A stretch of 64,000 nucleotides of DNA from Candidatus Omnitrophota bacterium (lineage in GTDB: Bacteria > Omnitrophota > Gorgyraeia > Gygaellales > Profunditerraquicolaceae): positions 76,766-140,765 of the forward strand of contig JAQURC010000001.1 in the NCBI GenBank assembly GCA_028715785.1, written 5' to 3'. Below the pieces are notes generated by a model. The model made no database searches. It was given only the letters and a program-made list of their open reading frames with translations, and was not told the DNA's origin. Made by a program: the position numbers and the translations under genes. This document shows positions 1-44,933 of this stretch, one piece after another. Numbering within the stretch: position 1 is the stretch's first letter; each line of letters begins with the position of its first letter.

Positions 1-2
1 CC

Positions 3-142: not shown

Positions 143-150
143 GTGTAGAT

Positions 151-231: not shown

Positions 232-241
232 ATTCCTGTAT

Positions 242-988
242 ATGGTTTTATTCTGGATCTTAGCCGGCACCTTCTTAGTCAGCCTTATATCCTTAGTGGG
301 AATTTTTACTCTGGCGCTAAAGGATGATCTGCTGCATAAACTCCTTTTTTGCCTCATTGGTTTCTCGGCAGGGGCGCTCATCGGCAGCGCCTTTTTGCAC
401 ATCCTTCCGGAATGTTTAGAAAACAATAAAAGCACCACAGTTTTTTCCTACCTGATCCTGGGAATCATAATTTTTTTCCTTATGGAGAGGTATTTACACT
501 GGAGGCATTGTCATGAGGAAGGCGGTGCTTGCCAGACCCATTCCTTTACTTATCTGAACCTGGTAGGGGACGGATTCCATAATTTTATTGATGGTATGGT
601 AATCGCCGCAAGTTTCATTGTTTCTTTAAAACTCGGGCTGGTCACGACTCTGGCAATTATACTGCATGAAATTCCCCAGGAGCTGTGCGATTTTGCCGTC
701 CTGGTTTACGGCGGTTTTACCAAGAGGAAGGCGCTTTTGTTTAATTTTGCTTCGGCGCTTATGGCGGTAATCGGGGCGGTTACAGGCTATTTTATAACCG
801 ATCTTAGCAAGAGTTTTTTGAATTTCATCCTTCCTTTTACCGCCGGCGGCTTTATTTATATCGCGACCAGCGATTTGATCCCGGAACTGCATAAAGAAAA
901 CGACCTTAAGCGCTCGACTGCCGCTTTTTTTGCCTTCTTGCTCGGTATAGTATTTATGGCGCTGGCAAAAAATTTCTTACCCGAGTAG
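242..988 (+). CDS. zupT: ZIP family divalent metal (Zn/Fe) transporter, ZupT-like
   Basis: HNFIDGMVIAASF and LHEIPQELCDFAVL ZIP signature motifs; multi-TM protein of 248 aa. Confidence 0.75.
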   Translation: MVLFWILAGTFLVSLISLVGIFTLALKDDLLHKLLFCLIGFSAGALIGSAFLHILPECLENNKSTTVFSYLILGIIIFFLMERYLHWRHCHEEGGACQTHSFTYLNLVGDGFHNFIDGMVIAASFIVSLKLGLVTTLAIILHEIPQELCDFAVLVYGGFTKRKALLFNFASALMAVIGAVTGYFITDLSKSFLNFILPFTAGGFIYIATSDLIPELHKENDLKRSTAAFFAFLLGIVFMALAKNFLPE

Positions 989-1000
989 TTATTATTTTAT

Positions 1001-1981: not shown

Positions 1982-2982
1982 AAGAAGCTTTACTTTATAC
2001 CCGGCTAGACGGCCTAAGCGTGCATTGCCAGCTCTGCGCGCATAGCTGTAAAATCCAGGAAGGTAAATTCGGTTTTTGCGGGGTACGGCAGAACATCGAA
2101 GGCGCCCTTTACACGCATAATTATGGCAAGCTGGTAGCGGTAAACATAGACCCGGTTGAGAAAAAACCGCTTTTTCATTTTCTTCCCGGGACAACCGCCT
2201 TTTCTATCGCCAGCGCGGGGTGTAATTTCCGCTGCGGCTTTTGCCAGAATTGGCAGATTTCCCAGCTGGATTTTATTAATCAGCAGCCTCCGGGAGAAGA
2301 TTTTAGCCCTGATAAGGTCGTAAAACTGGCTAAGCAGAATAATTGTAAAAGCATCGCTTATACTTATACCGAGCCGACGATTTATTTTGAGTTTGCTTTA
2401 GAGGCGGCGGTATTGGCCAAAAAAGCGGGACTGGCTAATATATTTGTTACCAACGGTTATATGAGCCCTCAAGCAATTGCTTTGCTCAAGCCATATTTAG
2501 ACGCCGCTAATGTGGATTTAAAGTTTTACAAGGAGAGTTCTTATCAGAAGATTTGCGCCGCAAAACTGGCGCCTGTTTTGGATTCTATCAAGCGGTTATA
2601 CGCTGCCGGAGTTTGGATTGAGATTACGACCTTGGTAATTCCCGGTGAAAATGATTCCCCGGAAGAATTATCCGGGATCGCGAAATTTATCGCCGGAATA
2701 AGTAAAAACATCCCCTGGCATGTTTCTGCTTTTCACGCGGATTATAAGTTTAGCGCTTATCCAAACACACCCGAACAGACTCTCAAGCTGGCCTATGATT
2801 TGGGCAAAAGCAGCGGGTTGCTTTATGTGTATGCCGGCAATGTTTATGGTTGGGGCCAGGATACTTCCTGCGGCCAATGCAAAAGGGCCGTTATTAAAAG
2901 AGAAGGGTTCGATATAACCGAGTCCAATCTTGCGGGCAATAAATGCGTATTTTGCCAGGCAGTCTTGCCCGGAGTTTTTTAG
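1978..2982 (+). CDS. AmmeMemoRadiSam-system-type radical SAM enzyme (PflA-like activase fold)
   Basis: N-terminal CQLCAHSCKI motif (C-x2-C-x-H-x-C) plus the radical SAM motif CNFRCGFCQNW. Overlaps the stop of the preceding PP-loop gene by 4 nt. Confidence 0.7.
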   Translation: MKEALLYTRLDGLSVHCQLCAHSCKIQEGKFGFCGVRQNIEGALYTHNYGKLVAVNIDPVEKKPLFHFLPGTTAFSIASAGCNFRCGFCQNWQISQLDFINQQPPGEDFSPDKVVKLAKQNNCKSIAYTYTEPTIYFEFALEAAVLAKKAGLANIFVTNGYMSPQAIALLKPYLDAANVDLKFYKESSYQKICAAKLAPVLDSIKRLYAAGVWIEITTLVIPGENDSPEELSGIAKFIAGISKNIPWHVSAFHADYKFSAYPNTPEQTLKLAYDLGKSSGLLYVYAGNVYGWGQDTSCGQCKRAVIKREGFDITESNLAGNKCVFCQAVLPGVF

Positions 2983-3157
2983 TTTGAGTTGATTTTCTAG
3001 GCTAAAATTGGGCTAAAGATTAGTATTGACAGCCTTAACCGCCGGGTTTAAAATAATTTAGAAACTTAAGCTAACTTACAATTGTCCTTATAAATAAAAC
3101 AATAAAGGCATATACTTTCACGGCCTAAATTGGCGCCTTAAAGGGCGCCAAAAAATT

Positions 3158-3832
3158 ATGGTAGATAAAAATAACCGGCTTGACCCTAAAAAGTGCATTG
3201 TTTTTTTTGATTTTGACAATACCATCGCCACCTGCGATGTTTTTGATAATATGCTTTTGCTTTTTTCCAAAGATGACCGCTGGGTGGAACTGGAGAAAAG
3301 ATGGAAGAGCGGCAGGATCGGCTCAAAGACCTGCCTGGAGGGCCAGCTCCGCGGCATGGATTTAAGTAACAAGACGCTGGATGCCTATCTGCCCAAGATA
3401 AAACTGGATCCTTATTTTAAGCAGGTTTATAAGTTTCTGCAGGCCAAAAAAATCAAAGCCTTTGTTTTGAGCGATAACTACGACTACATAATTAACCGGG
3501 TTTTAAAGATCAACCGCATAAACAAACTTAAAGTTTACGCCAATAAGTTGCGTTTTTCCAAGGGCGAAGTGATTACGGAATATCCTTTCAAGGATAAAGA
3601 CTGCCAGATCTGCGCGCATTGTAAAACAAAAAACCTTCTGGAAAAAGCGCCCAAAAATTCCACAATAATTTATGTCGGCGACGGTGAATCCGATGCCTGC
3701 CCGGCAAAATACGCCCAGGTTGTATTTGCCAAGGACCATCTGCTCCGGCATCTCAAAGAAAGCAAGCTGGATTACATGGCTTTTAATAACCTAAAAGACG
3801 TGCTTATTTATTTAAAAAGGAAACTGATATGA
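3158..3832 (+). CDS. HAD-IB family phosphatase, MtnX-like
   Basis: DFDNTIA HAD motif I, a GDGESD motif, and a CQICAHCK Cys cluster as in MtnX-type phosphatases. Confidence 0.55.
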   Translation: MVDKNNRLDPKKCIVFFDFDNTIATCDVFDNMLLLFSKDDRWVELEKRWKSGRIGSKTCLEGQLRGMDLSNKTLDAYLPKIKLDPYFKQVYKFLQAKKIKAFVLSDNYDYIINRVLKINRINKLKVYANKLRFSKGEVITEYPFKDKDCQICAHCKTKNLLEKAPKNSTIIYVGDGESDACPAKYAQVVFAKDHLLRHLKESKLDYMAFNNLKDVLIYLKRKLI

Positions 3833-5244
3833 GCCCAAAACAGTTGACCAAAACAGCTAAAAACAAAAAGGTTTTTACCCGGGATGAACTTTTGGACCTT
3901 GAGGCAAGATACTGTTCATGGGGGGATACGGTGCATTATGCCGAGAAGCTCGATATATTTAAGAGCGCTCAAGGCAGCTATCTTTATGACCGCCAGGGCA
4001 CGGAGTATTTGGATTTACAGATGTGGTATTCGGCGGTTAATTTCGGTTACCGGAATGTGCGTTTGAATGAGGCCCTAAAAAAACAGATCGATACCCTGCC
4101 GCAGCTGGCTTGCCAGTATCTGCACGAGGAGAAGATCCATCTGGCTGCAAAATTAGCGCAGAAAAACCAGTGTACCTTCGAAGAAAAAGGGAGGATCCAT
4201 TTTAATGTCGGAGGCTCAAGCGCCCTGGAAGATTCATTAAAGTTAGTGCGCAATCATACCGGCAGGAGCCTGGTTTTTGCTTTTATGGGCGGCTATCACG
4301 GCAGGACGCTGGCGGCTTCGGCGATCACCTCAAGCTTCAGGTACAGGGAACGCTTCGGCCATTTCGGCGACCGGGCGATGTTTGTGCCTTATCCTTATTG
4401 TTTCAGGTGCCCGTATGATAAAAAAAGGGATTTTTGCGATTTATATTGCCTCAAGCAATTTGAAAGGCTTTTTGAGACCGAATATTATTCGGTGGTAAAC
4501 AAGAAGAATAACAAATGTGAATTTGCCGCCTTCTACGCCGAAGCAATCCAGGGCACCGGCGGTTATATTGTCCCGCCCCAGGAATATTATGCGGGATTAA
4601 AAAACATCTTGGACCGTTACGGGATCCTTTTTGTCGACGATGAGATACAGATGGGGTTTTTCCGCACGGGTAAGTTCTGGGCGATCGAGCATTTTAATAT
4701 TACTCCGGATATAATCGTTTTTGGCAAGGCGCTGACCAACGGGTTAAATCCCATCAGCGGAGTCTGGGCTAAAGAGAAGCTTATTTCACCGGATGTTTTT
4801 CCCCCGGGCTCAACCCACGCTACATTTTCATCCAATCCTCTGGGCACTGCCGCCGGCCTGGAAGTGATGAAATTGATCGAGGAATCCGATTTTTCTGCCT
4901 CGGTCCCCAAAAAAGGCCGCTATTTTATCGCCCAGCTTAAGAAATTACAGAAAAAATATCCGCAGATCGGCGATGTGGACGGAATTGGCCTGGCCTTAAG
5001 GGTAGAGATATGCGAAAAGGACGGCTATACTCCGAATAAGGAGCTTACCGATAAGATCGTGAACCTGGGATTAAGCGGATCCTTGAATGTCAGGGGAAAG
5101 CGCCGGGGCCTGATCCTGGATGTGGGAGGCTATTATAAAAATGTCTTTACCATCGCCCCGTCATTTTATATCACCGAAGAAGAGATCGACCTGGGGGTTG
5201 AGCTTTTTGAAGAGGCCTTAAACAGGGCGCTTAAAAAATCATAA
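3829..5244 (+). CDS. Class-III (omega) PLP-dependent aminotransferase
   Basis: 471 aa with typical AT-III features (GGSSALE..., FGK lysine region FGKALTNG). Start overlaps the upstream stop. Confidence 0.7.
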   Translation: MSPKQLTKTAKNKKVFTRDELLDLEARYCSWGDTVHYAEKLDIFKSAQGSYLYDRQGTEYLDLQMWYSAVNFGYRNVRLNEALKKQIDTLPQLACQYLHEEKIHLAAKLAQKNQCTFEEKGRIHFNVGGSSALEDSLKLVRNHTGRSLVFAFMGGYHGRTLAASAITSSFRYRERFGHFGDRAMFVPYPYCFRCPYDKKRDFCDLYCLKQFERLFETEYYSVVNKKNNKCEFAAFYAEAIQGTGGYIVPPQEYYAGLKNILDRYGILFVDDEIQMGFFRTGKFWAIEHFNITPDIIVFGKALTNGLNPISGVWAKEKLISPDVFPPGSTHATFSSNPLGTAAGLEVMKLIEESDFSASVPKKGRYFIAQLKKLQKKYPQIGDVDGIGLALRVEICEKDGYTPNKELTDKIVNLGLSGSLNVRGKRRGLILDVGGYYKNVFTIAPSFYITEEEIDLGVELFEEALNRALKKS

Positions 5245-5253
5245 GAATCCACT

Positions 5254-6183
5254 ATGCTGGATAAAGGCACCCGCGTTTTGAATTTCGATAACAGCATTAT
5301 TGCCCAACCCAAACTCCTTAGCCGCTATCCGGCAGAAATTATTGATTTTACAGACTTGGCTCCTTCTGCCCGGCTTTATATCTCAAGGGCCCTGCGCGGG
5401 AAAATCCTGGATTCTCTTGCCCCGGGAGAAAAAAAATATCCTGTTTTTCTGGGCTCAGGTGATTTTCATCATATCAGCGAAATATTAATCAGCCAAATTA
5501 ATGAGCCTGCCTGTTTGATCGTATTTGATTTCCATCCGGACTGGGATGTCCTGCCTCCCCGTTTTGCCTGCGGCTCCTGGGTAAGCGAGGCTCTAAAAAA
5601 CAAAAATATTTCTAAATGCATACTTATCGGCGCCGGCTCCGATGATTTATCCAGCCCGGCATTACAGACGGCCAACCTTGGCGCTTTGGCCGGTAATCGC
5701 CTGGAGGTTTATCCTTACAGCCATAAACCAGCTAGCGTTTATTTCAGGGGCGTTGCGCAAAACCGCTCGATTACGGTCCAAAAAGGAATTTTTTCAAATA
5801 AAATCATCTGGCACCAGTTGGAGAAAGAGGACTTAACCGCCTTTACCCTGGGATTGATCAAGGGCCTGCCCGAGCGAAAAGTTTATATCTCAATCGATAA
5901 AGATTGCCTAAAAAAAGATTTTGCCTTGACCAATTGGGAAGAAGGCCTTTTGCGTCTGGACCAACTCTTGGCCATGCTGAAGCTGATGCGGGAAAATTTG
6001 GATATAATTGGTTTAGATGTGGCAGGCGACTATTCTGTCCCGCTGGTTTTAAACAAAATAAAGTCGGTTATTTCAAGGCTGGATCATCCTAAAAAATTTT
6101 CTGCAAAAAATTACCCTGCTGATTTGATTTCTTCGGTAAATGAACAAACTAACCTTATGATCCTTGCCGAGGTCTTTCCCTAA
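5254..6183 (+). CDS. Divergent arginase/agmatinase (ureohydrolase) family protein
   Basis: Degenerate ureohydrolase metal-binding motifs GSGDFHHIS, DFHPDWD and SIDKDCL. Confidence 0.4.
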   Translation: MLDKGTRVLNFDNSIIAQPKLLSRYPAEIIDFTDLAPSARLYISRALRGKILDSLAPGEKKYPVFLGSGDFHHISEILISQINEPACLIVFDFHPDWDVLPPRFACGSWVSEALKNKNISKCILIGAGSDDLSSPALQTANLGALAGNRLEVYPYSHKPASVYFRGVAQNRSITVQKGIFSNKIIWHQLEKEDLTAFTLGLIKGLPERKVYISIDKDCLKKDFALTNWEEGLLRLDQLLAMLKLMRENLDIIGLDVAGDYSVPLVLNKIKSVISRLDHPKKFSAKNYPADLISSVNEQTNLMILAEVFP

Positions 6184-7043
6184 GCTTTATATTTTTCAAA
6201 AAAATCCGCTGTTATCTGCGCGACTTTATCTCTTTCCTGGTCCGCGGTAATAATGTGATAAGAATTTTCCAGAAAGAATATTTCTTTTTCCCGGGAGTTC
6301 ACGTGGTCGCGGATATAGAAAGAGTTCTTGGGGCTGGTTACGTCATCATCCCTGGCCTGCATCAGCTGGATAGGAGTGGTTATATTTTTAAGTATGGAGA
6401 TTACTTTTTTTGAGAGCAGGTAATTTTGATACATGCAGGCAACCGGGATTACCGGATAACCGTAAAGGTGGACCTTGCTGTAATCGAAGAGCCCGGCTTC
6501 CTTGTAAAAATTTTCTATTTTTGACCTTAAGCGCTCATTTTTTATCCCGTAAGGGTATTCTTCTTTGAAGTAGAGCCAGTATTTTAACGGCATCCTGTAA
6601 ACTATGGGTAAAAGCATCCTGGATTTAGGGTTGCCCCATCCGTCAAAAAATAGCGTGGGGGAAAAGCAGTTCAGCGCCTTTACTTTTTTAGGGAATTCAT
6701 AAGCAAGCAGGATCCCGATCAGGGCGCCAAAAGATAATCCGGCTACGAAGATATTTTCATGCTTATCGGCGTATTTAATAAATTCATCGCGTACGGAGCG
6801 ATAAAGTTCTTGCCAGGATGTCCGTTTAAGGCAGGAGATGGATTTATTGTGATTGGCCATAAGCGGGGCTGCCACGGAAAATCCCTGTTTATTCAGGCGC
6901 TGGGCGATTGAGCTCATTTCTTTGGCCGTGCCGGTAAGCCCATGAATCAGGAAGCAGAGATTTTTGTCTCCGGGCAGGAAAAAGCCGGTATCAGGTATAT
7001 CGGTAATCGAACGCCGGTCTTCTTTTAGTGAAAAAATTACCAT
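6180..7043 (-). CDS. Alpha/beta hydrolase (esterase/lipase-like)
   Basis: GLSFG nucleophile elbow (GxSxG), HGLTG oxyanion region; 287 aa. Confidence 0.6.
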   Translation of the reverse strand: MVIFSLKEDRRSITDIPDTGFFLPGDKNLCFLIHGLTGTAKEMSSIAQRLNKQGFSVAAPLMANHNKSISCLKRTSWQELYRSVRDEFIKYADKHENIFVAGLSFGALIGILLAYEFPKKVKALNCFSPTLFFDGWGNPKSRMLLPIVYRMPLKYWLYFKEEYPYGIKNERLRSKIENFYKEAGLFDYSKVHLYGYPVIPVACMYQNYLLSKKVISILKNITTPIQLMQARDDDVTSPKNSFYIRDHVNSREKEIFFLENSYHIITADQERDKVAQITADFFEKYKA

Positions 7044-7053
7044 ATTTCCTTTC

Positions 7054-8274
7054 TTAAATTTCTTTTAGTTTATTGATTATATTCTTCAGGTCAGTTTCTT
7101 TTAAAAAGCCGCTGGTGCTTAAGGTCATTGTTCTTTCTGCCAGCAGGCGGCTATTCGGGCAATCCGCAGCCGGGATAATATTTTTTAAATAAGCGTAATC
7201 TGTAATAGCGTGCAAGTATACCCTGGATATTCCCAGTCCGGAATTACTGAAAGCCTGCAGGGCCAAATCTCTTTTTTGCCGGTCATTAAAAATAAGGGTT
7301 AAATACGGGTAGCTTGCTTTTGTTTGCGGTAGTTCAGTGATAGGCTTAACCCCTGGAATATCGGTCAACCCTTTTAGATAAATACCCGCTTTTTTCCTCT
7401 GCTCATTTATTCTTTCGTTTAAGTACGGGAAATTGAGATGCCCGATATATTCCCTAAAAGTTGAAACCCTGTGCACGGGGAAATCAGGATCAAAATATTC
7501 TCCCATTGCCCTTATCGGATCATTGCGTATCCGCCAGAATATCTGGGGGAGCCTGAAGGCAAACCAAAACAACCCCGGCCGGTAAAAAATGCCATAAGCA
7601 AAAAGCTCGGCGATTTTTAGGCATTCGGACCGGCCATCCCGGTTCATAATTTCTTCGAAGGTCTCTTTTAAAATCCGGGCATGCTCGGGCCGGTTGGCTA
7701 CGGCTATGCCGCCTTCATAGATACTCAGCCCTTTGCCCCGGCAGAGGCTAAAGAATGAAAATTCTCCCCAAGAACCTGTTTTTTTACCGCGGTATTGTGC
7801 GCCTAAACTCTGCGCGCAATCTTCGATAATAAAAGCATCCTTGGCTTGGGCGATCTCTCTTAATGCGTCAAGATCTATCGGCAGGCCTCCAATATGGCCG
7901 GCTAATATCGCCAAAATATCGTGGTCCTCTTTACAAATACTCTTAAGTTTATTTATATCAAAATCAAAGTTAAACGCGTTTGTATCGCAGGCCTTGATAT
8001 TAAGGCCTGCCCTTTTAATCGCCAAAGGTATCAACGGGCAGATAAAAGCCGGGATAATTACGGTTTTTTTGCCGGAAAGTTTTTTCAGGGTTTCCAGGAT
8101 CAGGTAGAATGCGGCGGTCCCCGAATAAGTAAGCAAGGCGCTTGATGCGCCAAGGTAGTTTTTAAAGTCTTCTTCCAATAATCCCGCGGGGTGTTTTTTA
8201 AAAGAGGAGAAGATCAAACTTTTGATTGTCAGCGGCCAACCCGCGGTTGGCGGGATCTCTCGTAGGATGCTCAA
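7054..8274 (-). CDS. DegT/DnrJ/EryC1/StrS family PLP-dependent sugar aminotransferase (ArnB/PglE-like)
   Basis: 406 aa with DegT-family organisation; same strand and 10 bp from the downstream hydrolase. Confidence 0.7.
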   Translation of the reverse strand: MSILREIPPTAGWPLTIKSLIFSSFKKHPAGLLEEDFKNYLGASSALLTYSGTAAFYLILETLKKLSGKKTVIIPAFICPLIPLAIKRAGLNIKACDTNAFNFDFDINKLKSICKEDHDILAILAGHIGGLPIDLDALREIAQAKDAFIIEDCAQSLGAQYRGKKTGSWGEFSFFSLCRGKGLSIYEGGIAVANRPEHARILKETFEEIMNRDGRSECLKIAELFAYGIFYRPGLFWFAFRLPQIFWRIRNDPIRAMGEYFDPDFPVHRVSTFREYIGHLNFPYLNERINEQRKKAGIYLKGLTDIPGVKPITELPQTKASYPYLTLIFNDRQKRDLALQAFSNSGLGISRVYLHAITDYAYLKNIIPAADCPNSRLLAERTMTLSTSGFLKETDLKNIINKLKEI

Positions 8275-8345
8275 ATTTTAATTCCTTTTCTGTTATCCAA
8301 TTTATCTATTTTATGCTAAAATAAACGGAAATTCAAGCTAACTCT

Positions 8346-9467
8346 ATGCCTAAAATCAGCTGCCGGGTATTTGATAATATAAACAGGATCGACGAAAAAG
8401 ATTGGGATGCTGTTTTCGGGGATATCCCGGAGGGCTATCCTTTTTATAAGGCGTTGGCTAATTCCGAACTTCCCGATTTTGCATTTTATTATTTGGTTAT
8501 TTATCGCGATGCCGAAGTTGTGCTTATTGCCCCGTTATTCAGCGCTGATTTTAACCTGGATATTGCCGTAGAAGGCCGGGTTTCCAAAGTCATTAAATTT
8601 ATCCGTAAATTTTTTCCGCGTTTTTTGATTTTAAAGACGCTTTTTTGCGGCACGCCTTTCGGAGAGTATGGGGTTTTGGGGATCAGGCAGGATTTCCAGG
8701 ATGACCCCGGGGCCATCCCGTTGTTATTAGCGGGCATAAAAGATTTAGCCGTTAAAATCAATGCCCCGCTGGTAATTTTTAAGGATTTTTTAAAGCAGGG
8801 CACGCTGTTTTTAGATGCTTTAACCCGGCAAGGGTATTCTAAAGTAAAAAGTTTTCCCACCGTACTTTTGGATCTTAATTTTGCCTCTTTTGAAGATTAT
8901 CTTAAAAGCTTAGGGAGCTCTACCCGCAAGAGTTTAAAGAAGAAGCTAAAACAGGCATACAGCCGGGGCAGGATAGAGGTTAAGGTGTACCAAGATATTA
9001 ACGGCCAGATTGACCAGATCGCCAAACTTTATGAAAATACTTACCGCGAAGGCCCGACTAAATTTGAGCGCTTAAACCAGAAATTTTTTCTGCAGGCCGC
9101 CCATGATCTATATCCGCATACCCGTTTTTTCCTCTACTATGTGGACGGTAAATTGGCCGCCTTTAATCTTTGTTTTGTCTATCGGGATTTACTTATTGAT
9201 AAATTCATCGGTTTCGACTATGATGTATCCAATTATTACCATTTATATTTTGTCAGCTGGGCTTATAATATCAGATGGTGCATAGATAATTCCCTGCGTT
9301 ATTATCATCCGGGCCAGACCGATTATGAACCCAAGATCAGGCTTGGCGGCGAGATTATCCCGCTTTACGCTTACTTAAAACATAAAAACATATTTTTTAA
9401 TCTGCTGCTCAAATTACTCATTCCAATTTTTAAGCCTGAGAATTTTGATGAGTATATCGGGGAGTAA
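8346..9467 (+). CDS. GNAT-fold FemAB/BioF2-like acyl(aminoacyl)transferase
   Basis: 373 aa with overall similarity to the FemAB-like Acetyltransf_6 family; divergent from the DegT gene. Confidence 0.4.
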   Translation: MPKISCRVFDNINRIDEKDWDAVFGDIPEGYPFYKALANSELPDFAFYYLVIYRDAEVVLIAPLFSADFNLDIAVEGRVSKVIKFIRKFFPRFLILKTLFCGTPFGEYGVLGIRQDFQDDPGAIPLLLAGIKDLAVKINAPLVIFKDFLKQGTLFLDALTRQGYSKVKSFPTVLLDLNFASFEDYLKSLGSSTRKSLKKKLKQAYSRGRIEVKVYQDINGQIDQIAKLYENTYREGPTKFERLNQKFFLQAAHDLYPHTRFFLYYVDGKLAAFNLCFVYRDLLIDKFIGFDYDVSNYYHLYFVSWAYNIRWCIDNSLRYYHPGQTDYEPKIRLGGEIIPLYAYLKHKNIFFNLLLKLLIPIFKPENFDEYIGE

Positions 9468-9472
9468 AAGCG

Positions 9473-9889
9473 ATGTTTAAGAAGAAAATTACCCCAAGAA
9501 TGTTGGCGGTGCTTATTTCTACGGACGTGCTGGAAACTTTTACGCACCTATTTTTCAAGAAAAGCGCTTTGCCTGAAAGCGCGCTGCAGATCGATAATTT
9601 AGCCGGAGCGTTAATTTTTCTCAAAGCCGTTTTTTCCTCGCCTTTTTTATGGTGCGGGCTGGTTATGGTTTTTTTGGTTTTTATCATCTGGTCAACCATC
9701 CTTTCCAGGATAGATTTAAGCGTTGCTGTAGCGGTGTGCAGTTTCAGTTATATCCTGGTCCCGGTGACCTCCGTTGTCTTCTTAAACGAAAAGATCAGTA
9801 TTTTAAGATGGCTGGGGATAGTCTTCATCTTGATCGGGATTATTTTTGTTGCCGCAAGCAGCAAAGAAAAAATAGAGGGCCGCTTATGA
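9473..9889 (+). CDS. Small EamA/SMR-like membrane protein, ArnE-like flippase subunit
   Basis: 138 aa with 4 TM segments; tandem with a paralog. Confidence 0.5.
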   Translation: MFKKKITPRMLAVLISTDVLETFTHLFFKKSALPESALQIDNLAGALIFLKAVFSSPFLWCGLVMVFLVFIIWSTILSRIDLSVAVAVCSFSYILVPVTSVVFLNEKISILRWLGIVFILIGIIFVAASSKEKIEGRL

Positions 9890-10269
9890 AGGCGAATTTG
9901 TTCTTCATTCTTTCTTTAATTGCCTTGACCAGTATTTGCGACACCATCAGCCAGATTTTTTTAAAATCCACGATTAACTCGTTGAGTTTTAATTTCTCCT
10001 GGCATCTAATTAAATTTTTCAGGTTCATCCTTAAAATTATGCTGGCACCCCTGGTTTGGCTGGGCCTATTTTTCAGCATAACCTCTTTATGCGTTTGGTT
10101 ATTCGTCCTCTCCAAGGCGGACCTCAATTTCGCCTTTTCCGCCGACAGCATGCACTATATTTTTATCGCCCTGGCCGCTAAGTTTTTCTTAAGAGAAAAA
10201 GTCGGCTGGCAGCGCTGGCTGGGGATATTATCCATAATCGCGGGAATAGTTTTTGTGAGCTTAAGCTAA
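9886..10269 (+). CDS. Small EamA/SMR-like membrane protein, ArnF-like flippase subunit
   Basis: ATG at 9886 overlaps the upstream TGA (ATGA). 128 aa with 4 TM segments. The track ORF 9649-10269 is an N-terminal over-extension in the same frame. Confidence 0.5.
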   Translation: MKANLFFILSLIALTSICDTISQIFLKSTINSLSFNFSWHLIKFFRFILKIMLAPLVWLGLFFSITSLCVWLFVLSKADLNFAFSADSMHYIFIALAAKFFLREKVGWQRWLGILSIIAGIVFVSLS

Positions 10270-10347
10270 GCCCCTATTTAATTTTTTCTTGACAAATGAT
10301 ACTAACATGGTATCATATAATCTATAGATCAAAGGAGGTGATTGAGT

Positions 10348-10431
10348 ATGGATATCACGGTTAAATATATGCTCAGGCCGGTGGCGCATTGTAAAGAGGG
10401 TTGCAGTAAATTGTCCCGGGCAAGACGATAA
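10348..10431 (+). CDS. 27-aa upstream small ORF/leader peptide MDITVKYMLRPVAHCKEGCSKLSRARR
   Basis: Strong AAAGGAGGTGA RBS 7 nt upstream. Followed by a CGGGCA...TGCCCG hairpin and a T-run. Confidence 0.3.
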   Translation: MDITVKYMLRPVAHCKEGCSKLSRARR

Positions 10432-10472
10432 ACTGCCCGCTCGTTTTTATAGAATATCTTAGGAGTGTATTT

Positions 10473-10865
10473 ATGAAACTGATTACCAGGAATACCGATT
10501 ATGCTTTGCAGGCGCTTTGCTATCTGTCAAAGCACCGGGAGGTTGTAACGGTAGATGAGTTGGTCAAAAAACTCGGTGTGCCGCGGCCGTTTATGCGCAA
10601 GATCCTTCAGCGGTTAAATAAAGAAAGGATCTTAGGGTCTTATAAGGGCCAGGGAGGAGGTTTTAAGCTTGCGGTCCCCCCCGCAAAAATTTTTATAATC
10701 AAGATAATGCGTATTTTTCAAGGCAAGGTGGGTTTAAACGGCTGTTTTTTAAAAAAAGATATCTGTCCGAATAAAGGCAGGTGTGTTTTACGCAAAAAGA
10801 TCCACGCTATTGAAAATAATGTTGTTAAGCAGCTTAGGGAGATAAATATTGCCGCTTTAATTTAG
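10473..10865 (+). CDS. Rrf2 family transcriptional regulator (IscR/NsrR-like)
   Basis: N-terminal MKLITRNTDYALQALCYLS, typical of Rrf2 HTH proteins. Confidence 0.8.
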   Translation: MKLITRNTDYALQALCYLSKHREVVTVDELVKKLGVPRPFMRKILQRLNKERILGSYKGQGGGFKLAVPPAKIFIIKIMRIFQGKVGLNGCFLKKDICPNKGRCVLRKKIHAIENNVVKQLREINIAALI

Positions 10866-10872
10866 GAAAAGT

Positions 10873-11466
10873 ATGGCTAAGAGAAAAATTATCAATATTG
10901 ATGAAGAGAAATGTAATGGATGCGGCCTGTGCATACCCAACTGCCCGGAGGGTGCAATTCGGATCATTGATAAGAAAGCCCGGTTAATCAGTGATTTATT
11001 CTGTGACGGCCTGGGCGCCTGCCTTGGTTATTGCCCGCAAGGGGCAATTAGCATAGAAGAAAGGGAGGCTGCTCCGTATGATGGGAAAAAAGTAAACATT
11101 GGTTCTGGGCTGTGCCAATGGCCGATACAGCTGTGTCTTGTGCCGGCACATGCCCCATACTTTGAAGGGGCGGATGTTTTAATTTCCGCTGATTGCGTGC
11201 CGTTTGCCTACGCTGATTTTCATCAGGATTTATTAAGAAATAAAATTCTTCTGGTTGGTTGTCCCAAGTTTGATGATATATCTCTATACCGAGAAAAGCT
11301 CAAGCAGATATTTACGGAAAATAATATTAAATCCGTAACCTGCGCGCACATGGAGGTCCCTTGTTGTTTTGGCTTGCTTCCCGTAATTAATGCAGCGCTT
11401 AAAGGGTCGGGTAAGAAGATACCGTTTGAGGATATTACTATTAGTATTAAAGGAAAGAAGGTTTGA
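10873..11466 (+). CDS. 4Fe-4S ferredoxin-domain protein
   Basis: CNGCGLCIPNCPEGAI and CDGLGACLGYCPQGAI cluster motifs. Confidence 0.7.
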   Translation: MAKRKIINIDEEKCNGCGLCIPNCPEGAIRIIDKKARLISDLFCDGLGACLGYCPQGAISIEEREAAPYDGKKVNIGSGLCQWPIQLCLVPAHAPYFEGADVLISADCVPFAYADFHQDLLRNKILLVGCPKFDDISLYREKLKQIFTENNIKSVTCAHMEVPCCFGLLPVINAALKGSGKKIPFEDITISIKGKKV

Positions 11467-11575
11467 TGTTTGATAAGTGTTGCGGCTCAAGTAAAAAGCA
11501 GTTGCTATCCTGCTTACTTTGTTGTACCTTAATATTAAAGGAAGATTTAAAGCAAACATAAAAAAGGAGGCAAAG

Positions 11576-11917
11576 ATGTGTATGGTAAGGTTATCGCATT
11601 TGATGGCCGTTGTGCCGATCTCGCTCCTATTGACCGTAAGTTTTTTTGTCCTTTTTGTGATGCGCAAGATTGAAGATAAAGCCCTTAAAACCTTTGGCTA
11701 TGTGGTAATTAGTTTCCTTTGGCTGGCGGCGCTGGTTGTGTTTTCAGGCGCGGTTTATAAGACGGCTAAAGGCGCTATGGCAATGAAATGTATGATGCAT
11801 AAAGGCGGCATGCCGGCTATGGTTATGCCTGAAAAAGGCCCGCTCCCTAAAGATGATAAAAAGCCCGCTGCCCCCAAAGGCGAGGCTAACAAAGGGATTA
11901 TTTTTAAAGCCCAATAG
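11576..11917 (+). CDS. Small membrane protein (2 TM) with a Lys/Pro-rich C-tail; unknown function
   Basis: AAGGAGG RBS before ATG 11576. The track ORF from 11519 is over-extended. Confidence 0.4.
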
Positions 11918-11948
11918 TTGGTTTAGCGGATATGTTCGGGAGGGCAAA

Positions 11949-12110
11949 ATGAGCAAATATAAATGTCTGGTTTGCGGCTATATTTATGACCCCGGCGCAG
12001 GGGATCCGGATAATGGGATTGCCCCCGGGACTAGTTTTGAAGACCTGCCGGATACCTGGGTTTGCCCTGAATGCGGGGTGGGCAAGGACCAGTTTGAAAA
12101 AATAGTTTGA
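11949..12110 (+). CDS. rub: Rubredoxin
   Basis: [10 protein letters not shown]...[13 protein letters not shown], two CxxCG knuckles. GGGAGGG RBS. The track ORF from 11853 is an upstream over-extension. Confidence 0.9.
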
Positions 12111-12138
12111 TTGGTATGTGTTATCGCGGCGGATAAGA

Positions 12139-12843
12139 ATGCCCGTAGAAATCAGAGCCAAGATAAAAGAAATTATCCAGCGCAATTATAACGTAAAGAG
12201 TTTTCGCCTGGAGGTTCCCGGCACCCTGGATTTTAAAGCCGGCCAGTTCCTGTCGGTTGAGCTTGAAAATAATCCAAAATTTAGAAGATACCTTTCTATC
12301 TCCAGCTCTCCGACTGAAAAATGCCATTTGGAATTTACCAAGAAACTGACCCAGAGTGATTTTTCCAAGGCGCTGAATAATCTAAAAGCAGGCGATCAAG
12401 TTAGCATCGAGTATCCCTTTGGGAAATTTATCCTGGATGAATCTTTGGCCAAGGTTGCTTTTTTGTCCGGAGGCATAGGAATTACTCCTGTCCGCAGTAT
12501 CTGTAAATACGCGGTTGATAAAAATTTGGGCATCGATATGGTGCTGGTTTATTCTAACCGGTCGGTGCGGGATATAGTTTTTAAGGATGATTTTGACGCT
12601 ATGGCCAAGAGTTATCCTTCTTTGAAAATCGCGCATGTCCTGTGTGAGACCGAAACCGGCTTTAAATGCACTGTCGGCCTGATTAACAGCAGCGTAATCA
12701 GGAATGAAATCCCGGATTATCGGGAGAGAAAGTTTTATCTTTGCGGCCCGCCGCAGATGGTCGAGGCGATGCGTAAGATACTGGTTGAGGAGATGGGTTT
12801 AAATAGCGGCAGGATTATTACCGAGAATTTTCAGGGCTATTAG
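12139..12843 (+). CDS. FAD/NAD(P)-binding oxidoreductase (FNR-like reductase; probable rubredoxin/FDP reductase partner)
   Basis: FNR-like beta-barrel and NAD-binding motifs (RxYS-like RYLSISS, GGIGITP). Start could alternatively be GTG 12118. Confidence 0.6.
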   Translation: MPVEIRAKIKEIIQRNYNVKSFRLEVPGTLDFKAGQFLSVELENNPKFRRYLSISSSPTEKCHLEFTKKLTQSDFSKALNNLKAGDQVSIEYPFGKFILDESLAKVAFLSGGIGITPVRSICKYAVDKNLGIDMVLVYSNRSVRDIVFKDDFDAMAKSYPSLKIAHVLCETETGFKCTVGLINSSVIRNEIPDYRERKFYLCGPPQMVEAMRKILVEEMGLNSGRIITENFQGY

Positions 12844-12910
12844 CACCCCGCGCTTAAAGGAGTTGCGCGCCTGCCTGCCGGCAGGGGTGTGCCTTACTGG
12901 CAAGGAGGAA
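12844..12910 (+). repeat. Structured intergenic repeat, copy B
   Basis: CACCCCGCGCTTAAAGGAGTTGCGCGCCTGCCTGCCGGCAGGGGTGTGCCTTACTGGCAAGGAGG, immediately 5' of the fprA ATG. Confidence 0.7.
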
Positions 12911-12913
12911 ATT

Positions 12914-14101
12914 ATGGCGGCGCTAGAAATATTACCGGGCATATATTCGGTGGGAGTAGTAGATTGGAATGTGCGTAATTTCCACGGGCATACTTATACC
13001 ACCCGGAGGGGCTCGACTTACAACGCCTACCTGATTATCGATGAGAAAATTGCCCTTGTCGATACCGTTTATACCCCATTTTCTGAAGAATTGATCAATA
13101 ACATCAAAGAAGTTGTCCCTCTGGGAAAGATCGACTATATTATCGCCAATCATGTTGAGGTTGATCACTCCGGGGCCTTGCCCAGCATCATGGCGCTTTG
13201 CTCCAAAGCCAGGATTTTAGGTACCGCCAAATGCAAGGAAGGGCTTTACCGGCATTATTACCAAAACTGGAATTTTCAAACCGTTAAGACGGGAGATAAG
13301 TTAGAATTAGGTCGGCGCACCCTTAATTTTATCGAGGCTCCGATGATCCATTGGCCGGATAGCATGTTCACTTATTGCCCGCTTGATTCCCTGCTCATGC
13401 CTAATGACGCCTTTGGCCAGCATTTCGCCACCGCCGAGCGGTTTGACGACCAGGTTGATCAATGCGCGCTAATGGAAGAGGCAGAGGAGTATTATGCCAA
13501 TATCCTTTGGCCGCTTAATTCCGTAATTTCAAGGAAGATCCAGGAGATACAGAAATTAAATGTACCGATTAAAATGATCGCCCCCAGCCACGGGATTATC
13601 TGGCGTAAGGACCCGGCTAAGATAATCAACGCCTATCGTTCCTGGAGCGCGGGGGATACCAAAAATAAAGCGGTGGTTGTTTATGAGACGATGTGGGGGG
13701 CAACTGATAAGATGGCTAAACAAATAGCCCAAGGCATAGCCAGCCAAGGCATAGAAGTCAAACTTTATAATATCGCGGAAACCGACCGTACCGAGGTAAT
13801 TACGCAGATGTTATCGGCCAGAGGTTTTCTTTTTGGTTCCTCCACCCATGATAATGATATGCTGCCCAATATTGCCGCATTCCTGGAAATAGTCAAAGGC
13901 TTAAAACCTAAGGGCAGGCAGATTAGTTTCTTTGGTTCTTATGGCTGGGCCGGCGGGGCAGTTGGCGAGATGCAGGAGCTGCTCAAAGATAGCGGGGCGG
14001 ATTTTACTATCCCCGGCATAGCTTTTAAATATGTCCCTGATCAGGCCGAATTGGAGAGCTGTTTTGAATTTGGCAGCAAATTTGCCAAAATCTTGAAATG
14101 A
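12914..14101 (+). CDS. fprA: Flavodiiron protein (FprA/ROO; O2/NO reductase)
   Basis: Metallo-beta-lactamase-like N-domain with HVEVDHSG plus a C-terminal flavodoxin domain. ATG 12914 follows the AAGGAGG of the repeat element. Confidence 0.8.
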   Translation: MAALEILPGIYSVGVVDWNVRNFHGHTYTTRRGSTYNAYLIIDEKIALVDTVYTPFSEELINNIKEVVPLGKIDYIIANHVEVDHSGALPSIMALCSKARILGTAKCKEGLYRHYYQNWNFQTVKTGDKLELGRRTLNFIEAPMIHWPDSMFTYCPLDSLLMPNDAFGQHFATAERFDDQVDQCALMEEAEEYYANILWPLNSVISRKIQEIQKLNVPIKMIAPSHGIIWRKDPAKIINAYRSWSAGDTKNKAVVVYETMWGATDKMAKQIAQGIASQGIEVKLYNIAETDRTEVITQMLSARGFLFGSSTHDNDMLPNIAAFLEIVKGLKPKGRQISFFGSYGWAGGAVGEMQELLKDSGADFTIPGIAFKYVPDQAELESCFEFGSKFAKILK

Positions 14102-14568
14102 AAAAGATCCCCGCCGAAATTATTAATTTTTTAGGCGCCCAGGATTTTGTGATAATCTCTTCCATAGACAAAGCCGGTTTTCCCCATAGTTCATGCAAGG
14201 CGATAATCAGGATAGACCAGGCCGGCAGGATTTTTTTGGTGGATCTTTACCATGGGGCAACCTGTGAGAATATAAAAGCTAACCCGCGAATAAGCATTAG
14301 CGCCGTTGATGAGCATAAGTTTGCCGGCTATTGCCTTAAAGGCAGGGGAGAAATTATGTCCGGTAACAATATCAGCCAGGAGATCATTAAAATCTGGGAG
14401 GATAATATTACCGGCCGGCTGGCAAAAAGATTGTTGAAGAACTTGTCCGGAGACAGGGGCCACGGCCATCATCCCGAAGCCAGCCTGCCGCATCCCAAAC
14501 ATATTATCGTAATTAAAGTGGAAGAGATAGTTGACCTTGCTCCGGTCCATTTGAGAAAGGAAAAATAA
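14098..14568 (+). CDS. Pyridoxamine 5'-phosphate oxidase-like FMN-binding family protein
   Basis: PNPOx-like split-barrel pattern over 156 aa. Confidence 0.5.
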   Translation: MKKIPAEIINFLGAQDFVIISSIDKAGFPHSSCKAIIRIDQAGRIFLVDLYHGATCENIKANPRISISAVDEHKFAGYCLKGRGEIMSGNNISQEIIKIWEDNITGRLAKRLLKNLSGDRGHGHHPEASLPHPKHIIVIKVEEIVDLAPVHLRKEK

Positions 14569-14569
14569 T

Positions 14570-14806
14570 ATGGCCAAGAGCGTGATAGTCTATAGTACTC
14601 CGACTTGCCCCTGGTGCATCCGGGTCAAACAGTTTTTAAAAGAGAACAACATATTATTTTTAGATTGGGATGTGTCCGTTGATCAGGCCGCCGCGGATGA
14701 GATGATCAAGAAGAGCGGCCAGATGGGGGTGCCGGTGCTGGATATCGACGGACAGATTATCGTGGGGTTTGATAAAGAAAAAATTAAAGCAGCTTTAGGA
14801 GTATAA
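14570..14806 (+). CDS. Glutaredoxin-like protein (YruB/NrdH-like)
   Basis: YSTPTCPWC thioredoxin-fold active site; 78 aa. Confidence 0.75.
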   Translation: MAKSVIVYSTPTCPWCIRVKQFLKENNILFLDWDVSVDQAAADEMIKKSGQMGVPVLDIDGQIIVGFDKEKIKAALGV

Positions 14807-14822
14807 GTTATATTTTGTACTC

Positions 14823-14972
14823 AGGACTTTGTCGCGTGCGAAATTTTTCGCCGTCTGCTGCTGTTTACGACTCACTCTCGGACTGACTTACGTTGTAAGA
14901 ATGTCCTCCGTTCGTCGTAATTCCTTGCACACAGTTGCCGAAAAATTTCTAATTGCACGTTTACAAAGTCCT
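14823..14972. repeat. ~150-bp element bounded by ~30-bp imperfect inverted repeats (MITE-like or double operator)
   Basis: AGGACTTTGTCGCGTGCGAAATTTTTCG at 14823-14850 is the reverse complement of CGAAAAATTTCTAATTGCACGTTTACAAAGTCCT at 14939-14972 apart from small indels. Confidence 0.5.
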
Positions 14973-14994
14973 TCGACAAAATATGATTAACATT

Positions 14995-44932: not shown

Positions 44933-44933
44933 G

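Follow-up and report, generated by a model that had tools for sequence, protein, structure and literature searches.

A conserved eight-gene unit of Omnitrophota built around a Fem-like double-GNAT transferase and two small EamA proteins: a possible membrane-lipid modification system

We describe a conserved unit of eight genes in a 64,000-nucleotide stretch of DNA from a Candidatus Omnitrophota bacterium (assembly GCA_028715785.1, contig JAQURC010000001.1, positions 76,766 to 140,765; the whole stretch is called the window below, and coordinates are counted from its first nucleotide). The unit spans 3158-10269, is widely conserved and uncharacterized, and is organized around a Fem-like double-GNAT transferase and two small membrane proteins of the EamA family. 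A first-pass annotation of the sequence had flagged genes at the center of this unit and read them as an ArnB-like aminotransferase, a Fem-like transferase, and a pair of ArnE/ArnF-like transporters acting on a lipid-linked aminosugar. That interpretation is partly supported: its family calls, its dedicated transporter pair, and its idea of a cell-envelope function hold up, while its view of the extent of the unit and its basis for an aminosugar do not. With slightly less than even confidence, we read the unit as a split, non-orthologous analog of the MprF and Arn systems, one that would aminoacylate or acylate a lipid head group and flip it outward. Literature searches turned up no paper on the eight-gene cluster or on the function of its GNAT family, and nothing on function under the Pfam and COG identifiers of that family.

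Conservation and extent of the unit

One genome per GTDB species was scanned with an alignment of the GNAT protein, yielding 80 loci (designated L), and the gene content of these loci was established by tblastn with the window proteins. All eight genes occur together in 22 loci, and a window-like gene order is kept in about 35 Omnitrophota. The unit genes are rearranged yet still clustered in metagenome-assembled genomes (MAGs) of Thermodesulfobacteriota/"Deltaproteobacteria" (L037, L043, and L046), in a second Omnitrophota group (L055-L064) whose GNAT is only ~35% identical, and in Methylophilaceae (L077 and L084). Partners were counted in the 39 well-flanked loci that have at least 5 kb on both sides of GNAT. 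The most constant is an alpha/beta-hydrolase (32 loci), followed by a DegT-family enzyme (30), the small EamA proteins Eam1 and Eam2 (29), a HAD phosphatase (28, rearranged loci included), an arginase-like ureohydrolase (28), and a class-III pyridoxal phosphate (PLP) enzyme (24). Among the 71 loci with enough sequence to score adjacency, Eam1 lies directly 3' of GNAT in 45, and the tandem Eam pair is present in 41 loci. With Eam1 placed in this way and all eight genes together in 22 loci, the arrangement is far from chance. Orthologue alignments show that the catalytic motifs are intact in all enzymes of the unit. The DegT enzyme, the Fem-like GNAT, the two small EamA proteins, and the esterase had been assigned to the correct families, as Pfam searches confirm, and the four flagged genes had been correctly placed; the HAD phosphatase, the class-III PLP enzyme, and the ureohydrolase had been missed, so that what was taken for four or five genes is actually eight.

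Gene fusions and minimal operons reveal a smaller core within this unit. Among the best 148 representative clusters of the GNAT family, 11 contain fusions of GNAT and EamA, ten with EamA at the C terminus (e.g., P0245, P0252, P0261, and P0323) and one with EamA at the N terminus (P0326). In two GNAT::ureohydrolase fusions (P0354 and P0386), the C-terminal half shares 27-29% identity with the ureohydrolase of the window (E 1e-34 to 1e-36), and a Hydrolase_4::GNAT fusion (P0329) is 35% identical to the window hydrolase. The survey also returned a PilZ-Aminotran_1_2-GNAT protein (P0301) and a GNAT-DUF4118 protein. In locus L086/87, a GNAT::EamA fusion is followed by a second EamA gene, and the opposite strand carries the ureohydrolase, class-III, HAD, and hydrolase genes and then a histidine kinase and a response regulator, without DegT. 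Locus L088/89 holds a GNAT::ureohydrolase fusion and two EamA genes and nothing else. In L091, class-III and HAD genes, a hydrolase::GNAT fusion, and two EamA genes lie on one strand, with neither DegT nor a ureohydrolase. Two distant GNAT members on short contigs have a small EamA gene directly downstream, and a still more distant member lies in a different gene context. From the fusions and the minimal operons (L086/87, L088/89, and L091), we conclude that GNAT and two small EamA proteins form the invariant core. The HAD phosphatase, class-III enzyme, ureohydrolase, and hydrolase are recurrent partners, and DegT is a lineage-specific one. Put differently, the ureohydrolase, the HAD/class-III/hydrolase trio, DegT, and a set comprising acyl carrier protein (ACP) and ketoacyl-ACP synthase (KAS) are modules that have been joined to the core in varying combinations. 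Since GNAT has been fused repeatedly to a membrane domain, it most likely works on a membrane-bound substrate.

The GNAT transferase and its membrane partners

The GNAT gene (8346-9467, plus strand) encodes 373 aa and matches the Pfam families FemAB_like (PF04339; 52.2 bits, cutoff 27) and Acetyltransf_6 (PF13480; 47.4 bits, cutoff 22). An AlphaFold2 model built from 14 sequences has two GNAT domains (pLDDT 84, pTM 0.82). When this model was compared with the PDB by Foldseek, the list of matches was filled with tandem-GNAT proteins, and the top match was FemX of Weissella (E 4e-13). Other matches include Sbb17 and Sba18, which are aminoacyl-tRNA-dependent peptide synthases with streptothrisamine bound (TM up to 0.68), a tandem GNAT of the clavulanate pathway, and the synthase domains of A-PGS, L-PGS, and MprF (E ~3e-9, TM ~0.5-0.58). 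Sequence comparisons were far less informative. Neither the single sequence nor a 38-sequence profile found a solved relative, no NCBIfam family matches the protein or its Methylophilaceae relative at E <= 0.01, and neither LPG_synthase_C (DUF2156) nor the MprF flippase domain has a Pfam or NCBIfam match in the unit, so the likeness to MprF lies at the level of the fold. One GNAT fusion protein gives a faint ATE_C match (E 1e-4, below cutoff). A literature search on PDB codes 9BGP and 9BGR returned nothing.

G102, E241, and K330 are the only residues common to all of 38 diverse members of the family. Fem-type aminoacyl-tRNA transferases carry a single essential lysine near the C terminus, K305 in FemX and K329 in DhpH-C (PMC12945691). 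K330 likewise lies near the C terminus of the window protein, in a position that may be comparable. By analogy with FemX, Sbb17, and MprF, the donor would most simply be an aminoacyl-tRNA. The family is large, with 478 clusters at 50% identity (E <= 1e-30) and 3,961 at E <= 1e-3, and it reaches proteobacteria and plants (At2g23390). Its members bear the JGI label "predicted N-acyltransferase," which is COG3146. The sole functional prediction that we found for COG3146 in the literature came from comparative genomics, and it was tested and invalidated (PMC3223725). Two GNATs of this kind are also carried by the gene cluster for the phosphonopeptide argolaphos (PMC8976061).

The two small membrane proteins follow directly on the same strand. 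Eam1 (9473-9889, 138 aa) scores above the cutoff for EamA (PF00892; 34.7 bits, cutoff 28.2), and Eam2 (9886-10269; 127 aa rather than the 128 first counted) falls just under it, at 26.6 bits, and is a clear paralogue of Eam1 and of EamA-positive orthologues. The two are 30% identical over 120 aa (E 2e-15) and represent distinct types in all loci, where each protein is ~60% identical to its own type and ~30% identical to the other. Overlapping stop and start codons had been described for the whole run; this is correct for Eam1/Eam2, which share an ATGA at 9886-9889, but not for GNAT and Eam1, where a 5-nt gap separates the stop codon at 9465-9467 from the ATG at 9473.

The best NCBIfam matches of both proteins are ArnF and ArnE, at ~30-37 bits and E 1e-8 to 6e-7 (Eam1: ArnF 36.5, ArnE 29.6 bits; Eam2: ArnE 35.0, ArnF 33.6 bits). 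The equivalog cutoffs are 92 bits for ArnE (NF011625) and 99 bits for ArnF (NF002816), and both proteins miss them by far. The description of a paralogous, ArnE/ArnF-like pair is apt as a statement of nearest family: judged by these scores, Eam1 and Eam2 share a superfamily with ArnE/ArnF without being their orthologues. Matches to small multidrug resistance (SMR) models were seen for Eam1 only (MdtJ 19.3, MdtI 17.8, and EbrB 16.7 bits, E ~1e-3, against cutoffs of 103-160). Generic SMR exporters would be expected to be unlinked in relatives, which would undercut the idea of a dedicated pair, yet the pair accompanies GNAT in different phyla, and 11 clusters carry the fusions described above. 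Fixed beside GNAT or fused to it in this way, Eam1 and Eam2 are dedicated to the GNAT system and are not generic SMR exporters.

Partner enzymes

The ureohydrolase gene (5254-6183, plus strand, 309 aa) is strongly divergent. The protein scores 23.6 bits against PF00491 (cutoff 22) and 17 bits against NCBIfam agmatinase models whose cutoffs are 174-302. A single-sequence search found no solved relative of it, and its single-sequence AlphaFold2 model was of unusably low confidence (pLDDT 44). In contrast, the profile built from 18 orthologues matches arginase 6vsu (E 4.5e-5), formimidoylglutamase, and agmatinases, and it aligns the DxHxD, SxDxD, and GxD motifs of the family with D92/H94/D96, D215/D217, and D255. 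None of these residues, nor H72, varies among the 18 orthologues. The protein is a member of the ureohydrolase (arginase/agmatinase) superfamily and probably acts on an unusual guanidino or amidino substrate.

Upstream lie the phosphatase and the class-III enzyme, which overlap at the stop codon of the former and the start codon of the latter (ATGA). The HAD-IB phosphatase, of the MtnX/PHOSPHO1 type (3158-3832, plus strand, 224 aa), matches TIGR01489 (102.5 bits, cutoff 81.55) and Put_Phosphatase (E 1.2e-13). Its DFD, SD, and GDGxSD motifs are conserved in 33 orthologues, as is a CxxCxxCK motif of the kind found in PHOSPHO1/MtnX-type phosphatases. The class-III PLP enzyme (3829-5244, plus strand, 471 aa) matches PF00202 (E 1.6e-79, 267.9 bits) and retains the PLP lysine (FGK300). 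Its closest solved relatives are a Pyrococcus alanine/serine racemase and GABA aminotransferase-like proteins. It meets no NCBIfam equivalog (best 305 bits, cutoff 552), and its best matches there are (acetyl)ornithine and GABA aminotransferases. Where all five best PDB relatives have the C-terminal arginine that in class-III aminotransferases binds the carboxylate of the keto-acid partner, this enzyme has a conserved threonine (Thr441), and it carries an additional set of conserved cysteines (C191-x2-C194...C203-x3-C207). Owing to this substitution, the extra cysteines, and its racemase- and GABA aminotransferase-like relatives, the type of reaction is doubtful; the protein is a member of the fold, but may be no ordinary transaminase. 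The enzyme is much better conserved than the proteins encoded around it, with 81-96% identity in Omnitrophota in which GNAT has diverged to 52-88%, and with 60-70% identity in the Methylophilaceae and Desulfobacterota loci. A database search with it returned only Omnitrophota proteins at >=81% identity, under generic names.

The hydrolase (6180-7043, minus strand, 287 aa; Hydrolase_4, PF12146, E 5.7e-20) is of the lysophospholipase/esterase type and is cytoplasmic, without a signal peptide. The motifs HG, GLSFG, DD, and SYH are conserved in 55 orthologues. It is the second gene of a minus-strand operon with DegT (7054-8274, 406 aa), and this operon diverges from GNAT across an AT-rich control region of 71 bp (8275-8345). 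The divergent layout of esterase and DegT is thus as first described, except that the esterase falls just outside the interval (7054-10269) to which it had been assigned. DegT starts at a TTG preceded by an AAGGA ribosome-binding site, and a sigma70-like match lies on the minus strand of the spacer, at 8336-8308.

DegT is a regular member of its family (PF01041, E 1.7e-40, 139.8 bits, cutoff 19.8), with the PLP lysine K181 (in SLCRGKG) and an EDCAQ motif at least 95% conserved in 48 orthologues. It is no nearer to ArnB than to other members of the family, contrary to the ArnB-like label that it had received. The PseC, LegC, and WecE models score it the same as or above ArnB (PseC 93 bits; ArnB 60.3 bits, PRK11658, E 1.2e-16, cutoff 631), and all of these scores are far under their cutoffs. 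Its best PDB relatives are a glutamine-scyllo-inositol (inosose) transaminase (E 3e-18) and perosamine synthases, with ArnB at E 5e-10, so its nearest solved relatives include enzymes that do not act on nucleotide sugars. DegT is absent from L077, L084, L086/87, L088/89, L091, and the Methylophilaceae operons. Because whole lineages are without it, DegT is an accessory, dispensable member of the unit. Dispensability and the relatives outside nucleotide-sugar metabolism weaken the basis on which DegT had been taken to indicate an aminosugar. In L010, which belongs to a closely related Omnitrophica CG11 MAG, only two short pieces of DegT are left (7664-7928) beside seven intact genes of the unit; this remnant fits dispensability, or it could be an assembly error.

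Some of these enzymes would be at home in a system that makes a soluble cationic metabolite, such as a polyamine, a guanidino compound, or an aminocyclitol-like product, with the PLP enzymes, the ureohydrolase, and GNAT, and exports it through an SMR-like heterodimer in the manner of MdtJI. A ureohydrolase and a class-III aminotransferase are typical of polyamine metabolism, inosose aminotransferases are among the nearest solved relatives of DegT, RND/OEP exporters stand beside some clusters, and Eam1 weakly matches MdtJ, MdtI, and other SMR proteins. Yet ArnE and ArnF outscore the SMR exporters by 5 orders of magnitude, and both the GNAT/EamA fusions and the lipid and envelope genes around the cluster (ACP/KAS, PagL, ArnT-like, DedA, and CrtI-like) point to a substrate bound to the membrane. 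No cyclitol or sugar synthase was found in any locus, and no Rfam element or riboswitch, guanidine riboswitches included, was detected in 1-12500 even at E <= 1. We regard export of a soluble product as very improbable.

Envelope and lipid genes around the cluster

The envelope function suggested for the flagged genes gains support from the neighbors of the cluster in relatives. In L028 (Thermodesulfobacteriota), a single strand carries an OmpR-type regulator, a histidine kinase, a DUF1232 protein, a family 2 glycosyltransferase (GT2), a YdjC-family deacetylase, an ArnT-family glycosyltransferase of the GT-C class, a small EamA protein, GNAT, Eam1, and Eam2. The best and only NCBIfam match of the GT-C protein is ArnT (119 bits, cutoff 567). 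ArnT-family genes also stand at both ends of the cluster in L043 (159 bits, cutoff 567), and a weak PMT_2-like membrane protein of 600 aa, which we count as ArnT-like, closes the cluster in L077. PagL-like lipid A deacylase genes adjoin the cluster in five Omnitrophota loci, in three arrangements. Two-component systems flank L028, L031, L037, L043, L077, and L086, with OmpR-type regulators in at least five loci. An OpgB/LtaS-like sulfatase-domain enzyme is found in L046, and a DedA protein in L037.

The same neighbors make the best case for a variant of the Arn pathway, as the first-pass annotation had proposed. Here, DegT would make an amino sugar linked to a nucleotide or a polyprenyl carrier, GNAT would aminoacylate its amine, the Eam pair would flip the product linked to undecaprenyl phosphate (Und-P), and a GT-C enzyme encoded elsewhere would pass it to lipid A or another glycan. 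The GT2-YdjC-ArnT-like-EamA-GNAT-Eam1-Eam2 run behind a two-component system in L028 is its strongest support, and this layout is that of the known Und-P-hexosamine (Und-P-HexN) lipid A pathways, FlmF2/NaxD/FlmK of Francisella and LgmABC of Bordetella. The ArnT-like genes on both sides of L043, the adjoining PagL genes, and the rank of ArnE/ArnF as best family matches of the small proteins point the same way, as do Sbb17 and Sba18, which are among the best fold matches of GNAT and acylate an amino-sugar amine from aminoacyl-tRNA. The GT2/YdjC set, however, occurs in one locus only, and DegT is missing from the complete-looking operons L077, L084, L086, L088, and L091. Moreover, no sugar-nucleotide dehydrogenase or oxidase accompanies DegT, whose family also acts on non-sugar ketones. 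The window itself was searched with Pfam on most open reading frames (ORFs) of at least 180 aa and probed by tblastn with the ArnT-like, GT2, YdjC, and PagL proteins of relatives. The scanned ORFs include no glycosyltransferase of the GT2 or GT-C type, no polysaccharide deacetylase, and no fusion of a formyltransferase with a decarboxylase, and neither GT2 nor GT-C lies within ~8 kb in most loci. PurN (48380-48994) is a stand-alone formyltransferase. The earlier remark that ArnA, ArnC, ArnD, and ArnT are lacking nearby thus extends to the scanned ORFs across 64 kb. We judge the Arn-like variant unlikely.

A different picture emerges from the Methylophilaceae, whose operons combine a fatty-acid desaturase, HAD, the class-III enzyme, EamA, the hydrolase, ACP, FabF, GNAT, EamA, and OEP-MFP-RND genes. 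In L077, L084, and L085, the ACP, FabF, and GNAT genes overlap at their ends within a single operon, and L084 has the desaturase upstream and OEP-MFP-RND genes downstream. RND or OEP genes adjoin GNAT in L034 and L050, RND/OEP exporters are also present in L084 and L085, and a KAS gene ends the HAD-class-III operon in L037. These arrangements raise the possibility that GNAT N-acylates a small amine or amino acid from acyl-ACP, as OlsB and OlsF do, with the hydrolase-fold protein adding a second, O-linked acyl chain, EamA flipping the resulting phosphorus-free aminolipid, and RND/OEP proteins carrying it to the outer membrane. As the amine, one could expect ornithine or a diamine, with the ureohydrolase and the class-III enzyme as suppliers, or else an amino-alcohol phosphate from which HAD would later remove the phosphate. 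The Hydrolase_4::GNAT fusion mirrors OlsF, the two-domain bifunctional ornithine-lipid synthase, and P0301 places GNAT right after a lipid-amine-making (alpha-oxoamine synthase) domain. The ureohydrolase could yield ornithine, and (acetyl)ornithine/GABA aminotransferases head the NCBIfam matches of the class-III enzyme. For the order of steps there is a precedent in Campylobacter jejuni, in which a transaminase, an amino-alcohol phosphate, amide formation, and a HAD phosphatase follow one another (PMC11800397). On the other side, aminoacyl-tRNA enzymes rather than acyl-ACP ones lead the structural neighbors of GNAT, and none of the NCBIfam models matches it, those for OlsB and OlsF included if they are in the library. 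ACP and KAS genes are lacking in the window and in most Omnitrophota clusters, and the fab genes of the second Omnitrophota group resemble a housekeeping set beside recG. Finally, free ornithine requires no fused, highly divergent ureohydrolase. An OlsB/OlsF-like role, the main rival to the reading that we favor, is possible but doubtful.

Two further readings were rejected. A hopanoid pathway (HpnI/HpnK/HpnO/HpnN-like) was considered for L028, but the YdjC protein there scores equally as HpnK and as chitin disaccharide deacetylase, both below cutoff, the adjoining GT-C protein matches ArnT only, and no hopanoid cyclase or Hpn gene was seen in the loci. A phosphonate pathway, brought up by side matches to phn_DUF6 and PbfA, was dismissed in view of the lack of phosphoenolpyruvate mutase in any locus.

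Two lipid-related observations concern relatives only. In the L055-L079 group, the hydrolase operon upstream of GNAT includes an FAD enzyme of the CrtI/phytoene-desaturase family (e.g., L064 5395-6888); it scores 202 bits against crtI_fam (cutoff 238), is absent from the window, and may point to an isoprenoid, or to some other unsaturated lipid, as the substrate in that group. The P0301 protein (L090 5176-7977; 933 aa) joins PilZ, a class I/II aminotransferase fold resembling alpha-oxoamine synthases, and FemAB_like GNAT. Its neighbors are an outer-membrane Toluene_X channel, an amine-oxidase-like gene, and several sensor kinases, and it could represent a lipid-amine pathway controlled by cyclic di-GMP.

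A proposed mechanism

The split MprF/Arn analog that we tentatively favor can be laid out as a series of steps, in which donor, acceptor, order, and flipping are conjectured from the families, conservation, fusions, and context documented above. GNAT, at the inner face of the membrane, would place an amino-acid-derived group on a lipid head group, for which candidates are a glycerolipid, a lipid A precursor, or a polyprenyl-phosphate-linked amino sugar. The ureohydrolase would then strip the guanidino group from the product or a precursor in a reaction of the arginine-to-ornithine type. Since the enzyme is found fused to GNAT and is highly divergent, its best substrate would be the lipid-bound product. 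Conversion of an arginyl to an ornithyl group after transfer serves as an example, given that, to our knowledge, no tRNA is charged with ornithine; post-transfer arginases are known for ribosomal peptides. The hydrolase may reverse the ester or amide for homeostasis, or add or remove a second acyl group. The former role would parallel that of AhyD and PesT, hydrolases/esterases that are encoded in operons with MprF-type synthases (PMC6103681). The HAD phosphatase and the class-III enzyme, here also DegT, could make or tailor the amine-bearing acceptor. Eam1 and Eam2 would act as a heterodimeric flippase in the manner of ArnE/ArnF, and in some lineages an ArnT-like GT-C enzyme might pass the group on to lipid A. 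The expected outcome would be an envelope that is more cationic or poorer in phosphorus.

Several observations weigh against this scheme. The Foldseek TM-scores are moderate (0.53-0.67), and tandem GNATs that bind acetyl-CoA match the model too. No relevant tRNA gene lies beside the GNAT cluster in the 52 loci scanned, a survey in which paralogues of aminoacyl-tRNA synthetases were not searched for. Each of the envelope genes (ArnT-like, PagL, and the rest) is present in a minority of loci, and none is in the window. ACP and FabF directly upstream of GNAT in Methylophilaceae, and KAS in L037, favor an acyl-ACP donor or a purpose-built lipid. The roles given to HAD, to a class-III enzyme without the usual arginine, and to DegT are guesses, and it would be strange for a synthase to be joined to the very hydrolase that antagonizes it (P0329).

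In a bolder version, the double GNAT of COG3146/PF04339 and its EamA pair would have evolved independently of MprF as a second apparatus that aminoacylates and flips lipids, an analog of MprF assembled from other parts. In its fullest form, arginine would be taken from Arg-tRNA, put on a membrane or envelope lipid, and converted in place to ornithine by a dedicated ureohydrolase, either fused or encoded next door. We think this version improbable as it stands. If true, it would constitute a tRNA-dependent route to a lipid bearing a nonproteinogenic amino acid and the first function for the COG3146 family.

Comparison with known systems

The unit resembles the Arn pathway for 4-amino-4-deoxy-L-arabinose (Ara4N) in its DegT-family PLP enzyme and its adjacent, paralogous pair of half-size EamA proteins of the drug/metabolite transporter (DMT) superfamily; relatives add an ArnT-family GT-C inside the cluster (L028 and L043) and two-component regulators. 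However, it lacks ArnA, ArnC, ArnD, and ArnT, its scores fall 3- to 10-fold short of the ArnB, ArnE, and ArnF equivalogs, DegT is dispensable, and the small proteins are bound to a Fem-like GNAT, an obligatory partner that the Arn pathway does not have. With MprF, it shares the logic of synthase, flippase, and hydrolase, a synthase of the double-GNAT fold, fusions of synthase and transporter (GNAT::EamA), and a hydrolase encoded alongside, as with AhyD, VirJ, and PesT (PMC6103681). It differs from MprF in having no LPG_synthase_C match, in using an EamA pair instead of the unrelated flippase domain of 14 transmembrane segments, and in its additional PLP, phosphatase, and ureohydrolase enzymes. 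FemX/MurM, Orf11/Sbb17/Sba18, DhpH-C, PacB, and VlmA provide the best structural matches, with the same two-GNAT architecture and a single invariant C-terminal lysine. Yet FemX/MurM and the natural-product GNATs are only 14-19% identical to the unit GNAT, which falls in FemAB_like (PF04339), not FemAB, and has a membrane partner.

The Und-P-HexN pathways use a glycosyltransferase, a deacetylase, and a flippase, with or without an ArnT-like enzyme, to put a cationic amino sugar on a lipid, and L028 holds such a set upstream of GNAT. The same pattern of glycosyltransferase, deacetylase, and flippase is seen in gpgSDF of Pseudomonas aeruginosa, which makes glucosaminyl-phosphatidylglycerol (GlcN-PG) (PMC12713373). 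The set is nevertheless limited to that one relative and absent from the window, and the known pathways have no Fem-like GNAT, ureohydrolase, or HAD/class-III pair. The parallel with OlsB/OlsA and OlsF is functional analogy only. A phosphorus-free, amino-acid-containing lipid would result in both cases, an N-acyltransferase is combined with a second acyl domain, sometimes fused, the supply would be of the ornithine type, and ACP/KAS genes are at hand in Methylophilaceae; there is, however, no detectable homology with OlsB or OlsF, and the unit has a Fem-type double GNAT and a dedicated flippase pair. The capsule genes Cj1435-Cj1438 of C. jejuni offer a possible template for HAD plus PLP, in which a PLP enzyme yields an amino-alcohol phosphate that is coupled as an amide and dephosphorylated by HAD (PMC11800397). 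There, in contrast, coupling is by an ATP-grasp ligase on a polysaccharide, without a GNAT, an EamA pair, or a ureohydrolase. In its combination of head-group chemistry, flippase, optional periplasmic transferase, and two-component control, the unit works like Arn, MprF, and the Und-P-HexN pathways. It is a member of none, because the ArnB/ArnE/ArnF tests fail, LPG_synthase_C is lacking, and OlsB/OlsF find no match.

For COG3146, which is without an experimentally known function, these results provide a testable lead: a membrane-lipid head-group transferase with its own flippase. Some bacterial lipids are without an identified flippase; in the case of bacterial sphingolipids, no dedicated one is known so far (PMC11087976). 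A small EamA pair tied to its own synthase would make a clean model for such a protein. The ArnT-like, PagL, and two-component neighbors tie the cluster to known envelope-remodeling regulons. For Omnitrophota and other uncultured diderms, an amine-adding change to the envelope would matter for how they resist cationic peptides, for their phosphorus economy, and for contact with hosts or prey.

Genomic surroundings

Genes on either side of the unit were considered as members and set aside. Upstream, the ZIP, ThiI-like, and radical SAM genes are syntenic in window-like (group-1) Omnitrophota only and are absent from rearranged clusters. Downstream, the Rrf2 and Fe-S genes have a promoter-like site of their own (10289-10316), and in relatives 2-3.5 kb of permease genes lie between them and the unit. 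In 29 related loci (L002-L081; e.g., L081 12013-14321), a CitMHS/ArsB-like permease directly follows Eam2, and 18 of these also have ArsP_1. In the window, Eam2 is followed after ~200 bp by Rrf2, with no ArsB-like or ArsP_1 permease. As these permeases are absent here and from rearranged clusters, they look like mere neighbors, and a link to arsenic was rejected.

Several other features of the window lie outside the unit. A PP-loop ThiI-like gene with an NFACT-R_2 RNA-binding domain (1001-1981) overlaps, at an ATGA, a radical SAM gene (1978-2982), and this pairing recurs in ~21-24 related Omnitrophota loci. With 334 bits against TIGR04337 (cutoff 220), the radical SAM protein is an enzyme of the AmmeMemoRadiSam system; genes for the partners AMMECR1 and Memo were not seen next to it. 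The strong sigma70-like site at 10289-10316 precedes an oxidative/nitrosative-stress island (10289-15906) encoding Rrf2, a 4Fe-4S protein, an FNR-like reductase, a flavodiiron protein, a PNPOx-like protein, and a thioredoxin-reductase-like protein, to which relatives add a hybrid-cluster protein, desulfoferrodoxin, rubredoxin, and AhpC (L081). The other scanned ORFs are of a housekeeping kind (biotin genes, MnmA, the Rnf complex, PurN, FtsH, enolase, glycoside hydrolases, and transporters). Among them, a biotin set (BioB, BioF-like, and BioA-like; 20081-25611), a patatin-like phospholipase with a cyclic nucleotide-binding domain (35267-37270), and a complete Rnf complex (43664-48383) are ordinary. 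Between 40001 and 42400, the GC content dips to 0.37, compared with ~0.45 elsewhere, in a region that holds short ORFs only (<=179 aa) and tRNA genes at 41784-41855 and 42335-42407.

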